NCBI GenBank assembly: GCA_910585195.1
Contig: CAJUCX010000001.1
Coordinates: 233,609-297,608, forward strand
Length of the DNA: 64,000 nt
From: an uncultured Christensenellaceae bacterium
GTDB lineage: Bacteria > Bacillota > Clostridia > Christensenellales > CAG-314
Reading direction: 5' to 3'
Below the pieces are notes generated by a model that searched no databases, had not been told where the DNA came from, and saw nothing but the letters and a program-made list of their open reading frames with translations. The position numbers were made by a program, and so were the translations under genes. This document shows, one piece after another, positions 47,168 to 48,769 of this stretch (position 1 is its first letter; each line of letters opens with the position of its first letter).

Positions 47168-47193
47168 CAAAAAAGCGGTCGTATTTGACCGCT
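47168..47193 (-). terminator. Intrinsic terminator after the lipoprotein gene
   Basis: AGCGGTC-GTATTT-GACCGCT hairpin (47174-47193). The plus-strand A-run gives a minus-strand U-run. Confidence 0.7.
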
Positions 47194-47284
47194 TCTTCTT
47201 GACAAATGACCGCAACAAAACACATTGCGTTTTGTTGCGTGTTTAAGAAAGTCGGGAAAACTCTCAATAAAAAATAACTGTAAT

Positions 47285-48058
47285 CTAAAACAGTTTTTTC
47301 ACTTCCGTCGGCACTTCTACCGTAGTAGTTCCATAGTCGCAAAAATAAGTCGCATACGTTGTGCCGTTATCAAGTTTTTGTTCCATATACACGATTTTAC
47401 CGTCTTCAAACTTTACACGAAAAGTTGCCAAAATTTCACCGTTTGTGTTGACGGTTTCTGCAACATAACATTTTTTTACGTCGTCATAATTAAACCATGT
47501 ATTTAGATAAGACGAAGGGCGTTGCAATATTTTTACTGTTGAAAACATATTGATATTTAGCGTCTTCTCCTCCGATTTGAGCCAACCGGTTGTACTTCCG
47601 TCAGCAATGATTTTTGTTCGCTGATACGAAAAATACTTGTCATCTTCGTAAACTTCAAAACATATTTCTGATTTTTGCCCGTCTATTCGTTGCACTGACG
47701 CATGCTGCTTTCCATTTACAAGTGCATACTTAAACGTTTGGTTAGTTATTTGGTCGTTTCTTTTTAATATTTCGTTTATCGAAACGTTTTTAGCACCATT
47801 ATAAGTACTTATTGCATCTTGCCACCCTTGTGCGTCAACTTTTTGTGAGGCAAGGTTGTCTATATGTGCGAGTTTTTCGGCTGAAATTTGCAAAATTTGT
47901 TCATCGATTTGCACATCTTTTATGGGCTGCTGCGGTTCCGCCGGTGTTTGGTTTGTCCCACCGTTACCGCCGCTGCCCGCGGGGTCTTGGCAGGCACAAA
48001 GCGCAAAAATAAACACAAAGCATAAAATGGCGACAACTAGGGTTTTTAGTTTTTTCAT
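47285..48058 (-). CDS. Hypothetical lipoprotein
   Basis: Lipobox signal (VFIFALCACQD) and an AAGGAGG RBS 7 nt upstream. Low-complexity linker followed by a beta-rich body. No family recognised. Confidence 0.7.
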   Translation of the reverse strand: MKKLKTLVVAILCFVFIFALCACQDPAGSGGNGGTNQTPAEPQQPIKDVQIDEQILQISAEKLAHIDNLASQKVDAQGWQDAISTYNGAKNVSINEILKRNDQITNQTFKYALVNGKQHASVQRIDGQKSEICFEVYEDDKYFSYQRTKIIADGSTTGWLKSEEKTLNINMFSTVKILQRPSSYLNTWFNYDDVKKCYVAETVNTNGEILATFRVKFEDGKIVYMEQKLDNGTTYATYFCDYGTTTVEVPTEVKKLF

Positions 48059-48070
48059 AAGTGTTCCTCC

Positions 48071-48111
48071 TTAAAATAAAAAAGTGTCATTTCAACTAAG
48101 AAATGACACTT
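48071..48111 (-). terminator. Intrinsic terminator / attenuator abutting the lipoprotein RBS
   Basis: 12-bp perfect stem AAGTGTCATTTC / GAAATGACACTT (48082-48111) with a 6-nt loop. On the minus strand it is followed by UUUUUUAUUUU and then directly by the AAGGAGG RBS. Confidence 0.75.
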
Positions 48112-48290
48112 CCCACAGCCATCTCCTAGTTGTCGCCAAACAATACAAGGAACACTTCACTATATAGGGCATAAACGCCTACAATACTGATAATGGTATG
48201 GCCGAATGGGCATAACTATTTTGGTATTGTTTGCGTTTTAGTACTTCCCTATACTAGTGAAATTTTATAAGTGTATTTGTATTGTTTGGC
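48112..48290 (-). ncRNA. Candidate structured leader or ncRNA: 156-nt imperfect rod-like hairpin (48135-48290) plus linker
   Basis: Nested complementary segments: 48135-48148 with 48277-48290 (14 bp, perfect); 48152-48157 with 48269-48274; 48158-48169 with 48247-48259; 48173-48187 with 48224-48238; and an apical hairpin near 48196-48216. No class recognised. Confidence 0.4.
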
Positions 48291-48296
48291 ATAAAT

Positions 48297-48325
48297 AAAT
48301 TAACATTTTTTATCAATTTTGGCAA
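48297..48325 (-). promoter_or_regulatory. Candidate promoter for the structured leader
   Basis: Minus strand reads TTGCCA (48325-48320), 17 nt ending in TGT, then TAATTT (48302-48297). The predicted start falls at the 5' end of the outer stem. Confidence 0.35.
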
Positions 48326-48378
48326 CACAAAAAAAGATTTGCAAAAAGCGCCGATTTTATTGGCTTATTTATTAACGG

Positions 48379-48421
48379 AAATTCCCCGTTACTGCGCCTA
48401 TTCCGCAGTAACGGGGAATTT
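48379..48421. repeat. Perfect 18-bp inverted repeat (hairpin) with a 7-nt loop
   Basis: AAATTCCCCGTTACTGCG (48379-48396) and CGCAGTAACGGGGAATTT (48404-48421). No clear U-run on either strand. Confidence 0.9.
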
Positions 48422-48460
48422 ATAATTTTCTGTCATTTTTCAAATAAAATTTATCAAATT

Positions 48461-48497
48461 AAAACAAAAAAAAAGCGGTCGAACACGACCGCTTTTT
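48461..48497 (-). terminator. Intrinsic terminator after rpsR
   Basis: AAGCGGTCG-AACA-CGACCGCTT hairpin (48473-48494). The long plus-strand A-run gives a minus-strand U-run. Confidence 0.85.
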
Positions 48498-48520
48498 GAT
48501 TTACAAATTATTGCAAATAA

Positions 48521-48769
48521 TTATTCTCCTACGTAAGGGAGAAGCGCCATATATCTTGCGCGTTTTATAGCAACGGCAAGTTCTCTTTGGTGTTTAGCGC
48601 ATACGCCGCTCATACGCCGAGGAATAATCTTACCTTTTTCCGTAATATATTTTTTAAGTTTATTTACGTCTTTGTAATCTATTTCCGTAACTTTATCTAC
48701 GCAGAAATTGCAAACCTTTTTGCGTGAAGGTCTTTTAATAATGCGTTTTACAACTTTTTCTTCACTCAT
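48521..48769 (-). CDS. rpsR: 30S ribosomal protein S18
   Basis: 82 aa (..[33 protein letters not shown]..). Confidence 0.97.

Follow-up and report, generated by a model that had tools for sequence, protein, structure and literature searches.

Terminator/antiterminator leaders described in Firmicutes comprise the trp/TRAP, pyr/PyrR, bgl-sac/RAT (ribonucleic antiterminator) and T-box systems, which depend on a protein, a tRNA or the ribosome. Stem-loops at the 5' terminus stabilise Firmicute mRNAs, as in ermC and in the Bacillus aprE leader, the latter reportedly acting as a 5' stabiliser (Hambraeus et al. 2002, cited in the review PMC3997798). Long-range pairings between a leader and its coding sequence (CDS) gate translation in the fold-back inhibition of the IS10 transposase and in hok mRNA. 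Here we analyse a structured RNA leader upstream of an orphan lipoprotein gene on the minus strand of a 64-kb stretch of DNA (contig CAJUCX010000001.1, hereafter the window) from an uncultured, Christensenellales-like gut bacterium. The leader belongs to the terminator/antiterminator class and has an unusual anatomy; it is real, non-random and conserved, matches no known family, and is represented by three variants in one species group. It resembles the Firmicute attenuators in its structured leader, its terminator next to the ribosome-binding site (RBS) and its near-isoenergetic alternative hairpin, which shares the 5' arm of the terminator. In contrast to these systems, it has no RAT, TRAP, PyrR or T-box motif, and its upstream domain is a single rod of 137-156 nt and not a compact binding hairpin.

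We give about even chances to the reading that this is an autonomously transcribed, cis-acting 5' leader, restricted to the lineage, which carries a protective rod at its 5' terminus and acts as a transcription attenuator of an accessory surface-lipoprotein gene. All positions refer to the window and are read on the minus strand; contigs used for comparison are labelled L003, L004-L007, L089, L090 and L112. The minus-strand order is rpsF, ssb and rpsR (49551-48521), the rpsR terminator (48497-48470), an 18-bp hairpin, a promoter-like site, the rod, the linker, the intrinsic terminator, the Shine-Dalgarno (SD) sequence and the ATG of the lipoprotein gene. A preliminary description of this DNA had proposed the layout of a promoter followed by a structured RNA and a terminator abutting the RBS. 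This layout was found as claimed, with every listed element at its given place or 1-2 nt off. The principal features are:

48297-48325, minus strand: promoter-like site read from the sequence, with the -35 hexamer TTGCCA (48325-48320), a 17-nt spacer and TAATTT (48302-48297)
48135-48290, minus strand: rod hairpin of 156 nt, recognised by folding, inverted repeats, conservation and covariation
48197-48215, minus strand: apical hairpin of the rod, UUAUGCCCAUUCGGCCAUA, made of 4 bp, a C-C mismatch, 2 bp and an AUUY tetraloop
48112-48134, minus strand: linker of 23 nt, GACAACUAGGAGAUGGCUGUGGG, the hub of the alternative pairings and 100% identical in the three variants
48073-48114, minus strand: intrinsic terminator, with a perfect 12-bp stem (48111-48100 with 48093-48082), a 6-nt loop and the U-run UUUUUUAUUUU ending at 48073
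48093-48132, minus strand: candidate antiterminator hairpin, pairing CAACUAGGAGAUGGC (48132-48118) with GUCAUUUCUUAGUUG (48107-48093)
48056-48072, minus strand: translation initiation region, with the SD sequence AAGGAGG (48072-48066), the spacer AACACUU and the AUG (48058-48056)
47285-48058, minus strand: orphan lipoprotein gene of 257 amino acids (aa), with a signal peptide and a lipobox cysteine

The U-run of the terminator meets the lipoprotein RBS, as had been described, with the SD sequence AAGGAGG starting at 48072. The terminator stem can be extended to 14-15 bp (48114-48079), and a scan also listed it as a terminator-like site. Its candidate competitor is an uninterrupted helix of 15 bp, including four G-U pairs, with a 10-nt loop; it takes up 8 of the 12 bases of the terminator 5' arm plus the terminator loop. 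The stabilities of the two hairpins are nearly the same (-19.5 kcal/mol for the antiterminator, -18.0 kcal/mol for the terminator); when the linker was shuffled 5000 times, only one shuffle gave an equally stable antiterminator. In the terminated leader the Boltzmann weights favour the terminator (0.85) over the antiterminator (0.15). When prefixes of growing length were folded, the antiterminator was complete before the 3' arm of the terminator had appeared. The preliminary description had foreseen a mutually exclusive antiterminator, formed by exchange of the hexamers ACACUU and AAGUGU. The exclusive pairing stands and is non-random by the shuffling test; its partners are the linker and the terminator 5' arm in a 15-bp helix, not the hexamers. 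Likewise ACACUU, said to occur twice, is present in three copies, the third at 48064-48059 between the SD sequence and the AUG. The leader was also described as having a riboswitch or attenuator layout, and the attenuator part of this holds: an intrinsic terminator lies between promoter and RBS, together with an alternative helix of similar stability.

Folding and an inverted-repeat search confirmed the nested stems that had been proposed for the rod, including its perfect 14-bp base (48290-48277 with 48148-48135) and the ACACTT/AAGTGT helix, in which ACACUU (48274-48269) pairs with AAGUGU (48157-48152). A conserved bulge is found on the 5' side of the rod, inside ACACUUAUAAAAU (48274-48262). 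The mid-stem sequence is variable yet remains paired, and the apical hairpin is conserved; the latter (UUAUGCCCAUUYGGCCAUA) is the same in the three variants save for a C to U change in the loop. By itself the rod folds with -56.1 kcal/mol, and its lowest-energy and centroid structures show small internal loops only, plus one 9-nt one-sided bulge. The stretch 48300-48060 folds with -79.6 kcal/mol, compared to -46.6 +/- 4.2 kcal/mol for 200 dinucleotide shuffles, none of which (0/200) was as good; with z = -7.95 the leader proved far more stable than shuffled sequences in the fold check that had been suggested for it. Apart from terminator hairpins, the 64-kb window contains two perfect inverted repeats of at least 14 bp, namely the base of the rod and a pair connecting the leader with the CDS, which is described below.

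The promoter-like site TTGCCA-17-TAATTT is present at 48325-48297 as claimed, though with a weak -10 hexamer, which matches the consensus at 3 of 6 positions and is accompanied by an extended -10 TG (TGtTAATTT, 48305-48297). Because of this 3/6 match a promoter scan did not include the site in its list. Both hexamers are kept in all three variants, and the only two substitutions of L003 (TT to CC, 48316-48315) fall into the spacer. From the position of the hexamers the transcript is predicted to start at G48290, the first base of the rod, 7 nt past the -10 hexamer. A stem starting at this predicted +1 would have the geometry of Firmicute 5' stabiliser hairpins. Like the Bacillus stabilisers, the leader has a stable hairpin at or next to its predicted start and a strong SD sequence downstream; its hairpin differs in being 5-10 times longer, in its conserved apex and bulge and in being joined to a terminator switch. 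Between 48135 and 48060 the promoter scan found no sigma-70-like site on the minus strand, in agreement with the earlier statement that there is no space for a promoter between terminator and RBS.

Comparison of the lipoprotein alleles of the window and L003 gave a proportion of synonymous differences (pS) of 0.59, a synonymous divergence (dS) of about 1.2 and a ratio of non-synonymous to synonymous divergence (dN/dS) of about 0.22. At synonymous sites the alleles are thus close to saturation, which marks their divergence as ancient. The low ratio indicates purifying selection, and therefore a functional gene. A gene which is under purifying selection and lacks a promoter of its own must be expressed by read-through of the terminator.

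The three leader variants (the window type, the L004-L007 type and L003) lie on contigs encoding relatives of the lipoprotein. L004-L007 belong to the species of the window since their housekeeping genes are 99% identical, and the rpsR of L003 is 94.4% identical to that of the window (5.6% different). The rods of the variants are 137, 142 and 156 nt long. The promoter hexamers, the 14-bp basal stem, ACACUUAUAAAAU and the apical hairpin are kept in all three, and the 105 nt from AAGUGUUCC (48157) to ATGAAAA are identical. With a dS of about 1.2 at synonymous sites of the lipoprotein gene, the leader is therefore far more conserved than neutral sites. The RNAalifold consensus of the variants consists of the rod, a long-range helix and the terminator. 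Alignment of the L003 and L004 rods revealed 17 differing columns, of which 13 are among the 54 unpaired and 4 among the 88 paired columns (Fisher p = 0.0009; p = 0.006 when indels are counted as events). All four changes in paired columns (4/4) keep the pairing: they include one double compensatory change from C-G to U-A, and two are one-sided and result in G-U wobbles on the sense strand. Conservation or covariation of the stems in relatives had been put forward as the test of the proposed structure, and such pairing-preserving changes were found. Pairing in the rod is clearly maintained; selection on the rod at the RNA level is supported rather than proven.

The rod of the window differs from the other two by an extra helix in both arms, an internal duplication of the basal stem with which it still folds into a rod. 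Together with the paired insertions in both arms, this duplication is what would be expected if the rod were a quasipalindrome at the DNA level without RNA function, produced and maintained by template switching or hairpin repair and lying between promoter and gene by chance, or else a scar or hot spot of recombination in the islet that contains it. The window rod also folds equally well on both strands (-66.4 kcal/mol for the opposite strand and -56.1 kcal/mol for the sense strand), and the locus, with its four or more alleles, is a hot spot of recombination. On the other hand, the L003 and L004 rods favour the sense strand by about 5.5-6 kcal/mol, the one-sided changes between them give wobbles on that strand, and the rod begins exactly at the predicted +1. 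Moreover, sequence conservation far beyond neutral expectation extends to the apical hairpin, the 5' bulge and the entire 3' part, the rod is single-copy in the loci searched, and the islet boundaries are found at the rpsR terminator and not at the rod. Given these points, we consider a DNA-level palindrome without RNA function unlikely.

The duplicated basal stem lies at 48233-48212 and is 82% identical to 48288-48267 over 22 nt. The motif TTATGCC occurs three times, ahead of the rod, at its apex and in its 3' arm. These repeats suggest that the palindrome may have grown through nested duplications. An origin of the interior of the window rod by inversion of the L004 interior was rejected (alignment score 82 direct, 4 inverted), as was copying from another part of the window or from the CDS, for which no match above chance was seen.

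Two kinds of element with long palindromes were considered as well. A MITE-like palindrome (miniature inverted-repeat transposable element), one of the alternatives named in the preliminary description, did not hold up: apart from its single copy in the 64-kb window, the rod was missing from all other loci fetched, among them the 80 related rpsR loci, and from the viral, phage and plasmid collections, so that in the sequences covered it does not behave as a multi-copy MITE. An integron attC site was rejected too. The rod ends GCCAAAC / GTTTGGC deviate at position 4 from RYYYAAC / GTTRRRY, the polymorphism is bounded by the rpsR terminator and by a point within the CDS and not by the rod, and neither an integrase nor an array is present.

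Besides the switch at the terminator, the leader contains two complements to the beginning of its own gene:

48125-48138, minus strand: leader arm UGGCGACAACUAGG of a long-range helix (or inverted repeat), found by the inverted-repeat search
48028-48041, minus strand: CDS arm CCUAGUUGUCGCCA, made up of codons 7-10 flanked by the third base of codon 6 and the first base of codon 11
48148-48157, minus strand: AAGUGUUCCU in the 3' arm of the rod, 10/10 complementary to AGGAACACUU (48068-48059) between the SD sequence and the AUG

The leader arm and the CDS arm are complementary at 14 of 14 positions (duplex -25.2 kcal/mol), and a 14-nt complement between leader and CDS was obtained in 0 of 5000 shuffles. 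When the CDS is included, the lowest-energy structure has the leader-CDS helix stacked onto the base of the rod, enclosing the terminator hairpin and the initiation region, with about -23 to +16 around the AUG unpaired. In L003 the 13 core bases of the CDS arm are unchanged and the last A is replaced by G, giving a U-G wobble; the codons on either side of the arm are substituted. The block of identity between window and L003 ends with the last base of this helix, and many synonymous changes are found in the signal-peptide codons just past it. The shorter duplex of AAGUGUUCCU with AGGAACACUU has -13.1 kcal/mol; the longest perfect complement to 48071-47990 was at least 10 nt in 12 of 5000 shuffles of the leader segment 48157-48112. 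The two pairings cross, and therefore are not the product of one inverted duplication. The preliminary description contained neither the leader-CDS complementarity nor the strain-variable islet described below.

With respect to similarities within the leader itself, ACACUUAUAAAAU in the 5' arm of the rod (48274-48262) resembles the gene start region ACACUUAUGAAAA (48064-48052), and the real start region (10 bp) is a better pairing partner for the 3' arm of the rod than the one which this arm has in the rod (6 bp).

Perfect complementarity of a leader to its own initiation region (10 nt) and early CDS (14 nt) is reminiscent of the IS10 transposase mRNA and hok; in contrast to these, the lowest-energy pairing here is predicted to frame the initiation region instead of covering it.

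The same complementarities could also act in trans. In this case the locus would be an independent small RNA (sRNA) gene of about 216 nt, the linker and perhaps a processed 3' arm of the rod would pair in trans with codons 6-10 and the SD-AUG spacer of the lipoprotein mRNA, and the lipoprotein gene would be expressed by leak-through. The cassette is complete from promoter to terminator, the strong terminator prevails at equilibrium (probability 0.85), and the linker and the rod 3' arm are complementary to the CDS (14/14) and the initiation region (10/10), respectively. However, the gene is under purifying selection and has no other promoter, pairing in cis would outcompete pairing in trans because the targets are on the same transcript, and the non-random antiterminator points to regulated read-through. 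An sRNA is therefore a possible but rather doubtful explanation. The preliminary description had mentioned a 6S-like RNA in particular. Like 6S RNA, the leader has a rod of about 200 nt with its own promoter; in contrast to 6S RNA, it has a terminator fused to the RBS and no central bubble, and for the latter reason it is not 6S-like. In the region 47900-48550 the covariance models of 6S RNA (RF00013) and of the T-box (RF00230) gave no match at E <= 10, and the 6S-like alternative was rejected.

Since the leader and CDS arms form a perfect 14-bp inverted repeat, the locus also has to be compared with phase-variation switches. In C. difficile, the leader of cwpV is an invertible switch acting via an intrinsic terminator, with 21-bp inverted repeats flanking 195 bp (PMC2784873). 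The two loci have in common a variable surface protein of Clostridia, control between promoter and ORF (open reading frame) via a leader terminator, and inverted repeats. In cwpV the inverted 195 bp exclude promoter and ORF, whereas the repeats described here (48138-48125 and 48041-48028) enclose RBS and start codon. If the 83-bp segment between them, with terminator, RBS and start codon, were invertible, a flip would disconnect the gene from its start. Conservation of the repeats in L003, a gene encoding a variable surface protein and the precedent of cwpV would fit such a DNA switch. Nevertheless, about nine independent assemblies, which display the majority state only, all show a single orientation, no protein variants with a truncated N-terminus are on record, and in the loci read the genes called up to a few kb away on each side include no recombinase, although one encoded elsewhere is possible. 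The observed orientation contains terminator and RBS, so the flipped state would be off as well, which is functionally odd. In contrast to cwpV, an alternative state can be reached here by RNA refolding alone. Given the one-way assemblies and a flipped state without start codon, we regard inversion as very improbable.

The preliminary description had not been able to match the leader to a known RNA class, and scans with Rfam 15 bear this out. At gathering thresholds the whole window contained only the S-adenosylmethionine (SAM) riboswitch (RF00162) at 47072-46972. A permissive scan of 47900-48550 returned for the rod only MIR1435 (33.8 bits, gathering threshold 94), a plant microRNA precursor family whose match is a spurious one to a generic long hairpin. 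A T-box was rejected on three grounds: RF00230 gave no match, the antiterminator is uninterrupted, and the rod has its single large bulge on the 5' side. By the scans, the known riboswitch classes are rejected as well. The riboswitch part of the layout proposed earlier, i.e. a small-molecule riboswitch with the rod as aptamer, is hardly probable. A terminator/antiterminator expression platform is present, and conserved unpaired elements are found in the 5' bulge and in the apical hairpin with its C-C mismatch. The rod is nevertheless a single one without a multi-helix junction or pocket-like architecture, its length (137-156 nt) and mid-stem sequence vary, it has no Rfam match and is confined to one species group, and the gene downstream is a strain-variable orphan lipoprotein gene and not a metabolic gene or transporter.

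Leader and gene are located together on a strain-variable islet:

47169-48468, minus strand: islet of 1.3 kb with leader and lipoprotein gene, defined by comparison with empty-site contigs of the same species

The islet starts right after GACCGCTTTTTT of the rpsR terminator, as do all insertions seen at this site. At its other end (47192-47169) the stem of the rpsR terminator is found a second time (GCGGTC...GACCGCTTTTTT; first copy 48492-48469), with the loop AAATAC in place of GTGTTC. This second copy looks like a target duplication or a handle for recombination. Look-ups with the exact proteins S18, SSB, S6 and MetK identified at least four alleles of the rpsR-metK site within the species, making it a hypervariable hot spot (window compared with L090, L089, L004 and L112). 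One allele is empty, with rpsR followed directly by the SAM riboswitch and metK (e.g. L090); the commonest one carries a glycosyltransferase / ATP-grasp cluster (e.g. L089). The two remaining alleles are the window leader with the 257-aa lipoprotein, and the L004-type leader with a split lipoprotein gene. In the latter (L004, 2665-3999), the gene is divided into ORFs of 158 and 211 aa with an extra insert, and the leader upstream is intact; this may represent pseudogenisation or a two-gene variant.

Beyond the three variants, no further one was revealed by the exact-protein look-ups (S18, SSB, S6, MetK); a profile search with the lipoprotein family yielded no additional member accessible to look-up, and a search with the 45-aa N-terminus gave no candidate. 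In the rpsR loci of 80 related species (Christensenellales-like metagenome-assembled genomes, best S18 identity 82%), neither a homologue nor an analogue of the leader was found with blastn (word size 7), nhmmer --max or a scan for rod-like hairpins downstream of rpsR. Exact-pattern scans of metagenomes with a 20-mer of the linker and a 21-mer of the apical region gave 0 matches, a scan of viral contigs likewise gave 0, and the 1.3-kb islet had no match in phage and plasmid collections. The negative results for viruses, phages and plasmids speak against a known mobile element.

The lipoprotein itself matched no Pfam, NCBIfam or PHROG family, and of 5.8 billion protein clusters only four were found to be related to it. 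When 1.8 billion representatives were searched with a profile, 81 distant relatives of the mature domain were detected, often as tandem repeats inside proteins 400-1350 aa long; BspA-type leucine-rich repeats are present in at least two of these proteins. The domain is an uncharacterised surface domain. A low-confidence structural model (predicted local distance difference test, pLDDT, 59) weakly resembles the half-barrels of LolA, LprG and RseB.

Outside the leader, the region contains a further hairpin:

48379-48421: perfect 18-bp hairpin, AAATTCCCCGTTACTGCG / CGCAGTAACGGGGAATTT, between the rpsR terminator and the leader promoter

It is terminator-like on the plus strand only, occurs in the window and L004 types, is absent from L003 and has no second copy in the window. 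Downstream of the lipoprotein gene follow two terminators, the SAM riboswitch, metK and a gene for a RecD2-type helicase. The riboswitch is an ordinary SAM-I type (RF00162, 72.6 bits) at 47072-46972 on the minus strand upstream of metK, and its promoter (47111-47083) matches the consensus at 12 of 12 positions.

Several points weigh against our view that the leader attenuates transcription of the lipoprotein gene in cis. The -10 hexamer of the promoter is weak, and the variants number only three and come from a single narrow lineage. Being invariant, the terminator, the antiterminator and the linker offer no covariation. Their identity could in part come from recombination between alleles and not from selection, and the paired insertions and the duplication in the window rod could reflect quasipalindrome correction of DNA. 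The window rod is at least as stable on the antisense strand, which weakens the case for strand-specific selection for an RNA. No binding motif of the known systems (RAT, TRAP triplet array, PyrR loop, T-box sequence) is recognisable in the leader. Finally, the support comes from sequence and folding computation. What this computation shows is the structures, their non-randomness and their conservation; the following scheme builds on an inferred start site, folding order in vivo, sensor and physiological signal.

In a leader acting as a cis attenuator, transcription from about G48290 would produce an RNA that opens with the rod, and the rod would block decay dependent on the 5' end. It may also be a platform for a factor, as the conserved apical hairpin and bulge suggest an added role in binding. 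The linker and the half of the terminator made first would then form the 15-bp antiterminator before the 3' arm of the terminator exists, so that read-through would be the kinetic default. Occupation of the linker by a factor (a protein, an RNA or a ribosome) would allow the equally stable terminator to form and leave an RNA of about 216 nt. After read-through, the linker could give up the antiterminator and re-pair with codons 6-10, forming a 14-bp helix (-25 kcal/mol) stacked on the base of the rod. The terminator hairpin and the leader-CDS helix would together frame the SD sequence and the AUG, which would lie in an unpaired stretch of about 40 nt (-23 to +16). For a ribosome, a candidate site can be read from the sequence:

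48096-48116, minus strand: possible mini-ORF of 6 codons, GUG GGA AGU GUC AUU UCU UAG (MGSVIS)

The mini-ORF begins 6 nt after AGGAG (48127-48123) and its UAG stop is located in the terminator loop; the stretch is invariant in the three variants. Judging from this position, a ribosome on the mini-ORF could possibly mask the terminator.

A more far-reaching interpretation, which we put forward tentatively and think less probable than a simple attenuator, is that variable surface lipoproteins are expressed here from a self-contained cassette of a type not described before. It would combine a rod with a sequence-specific apical hairpin and a start-mimicking bulge (ACACUUAUAAAAU compared with ACACUUAUGAAAA), a bistable terminator and a leader-CDS clamp, all read by a factor, and the invariant leader would provide a homology handle for swapping diverged alleles at the rpsR-metK hot spot.

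The reach of the finding is limited by its confinement to one species group and by an ORFan as the regulated gene, and it opens no general question. Its source is the uncultured, Christensenellales-like gut Clostridia, in which regulation by RNA is almost uncharacterised. If confirmed, the leader would add an orphan attenuator in which a 5'-terminal rod of about 150 nt is combined with a bistable terminator and with a leader-CDS helix, and an example of an invariant regulatory module which accompanies fast-evolving alleles of a surface protein at a recombination hot spot.

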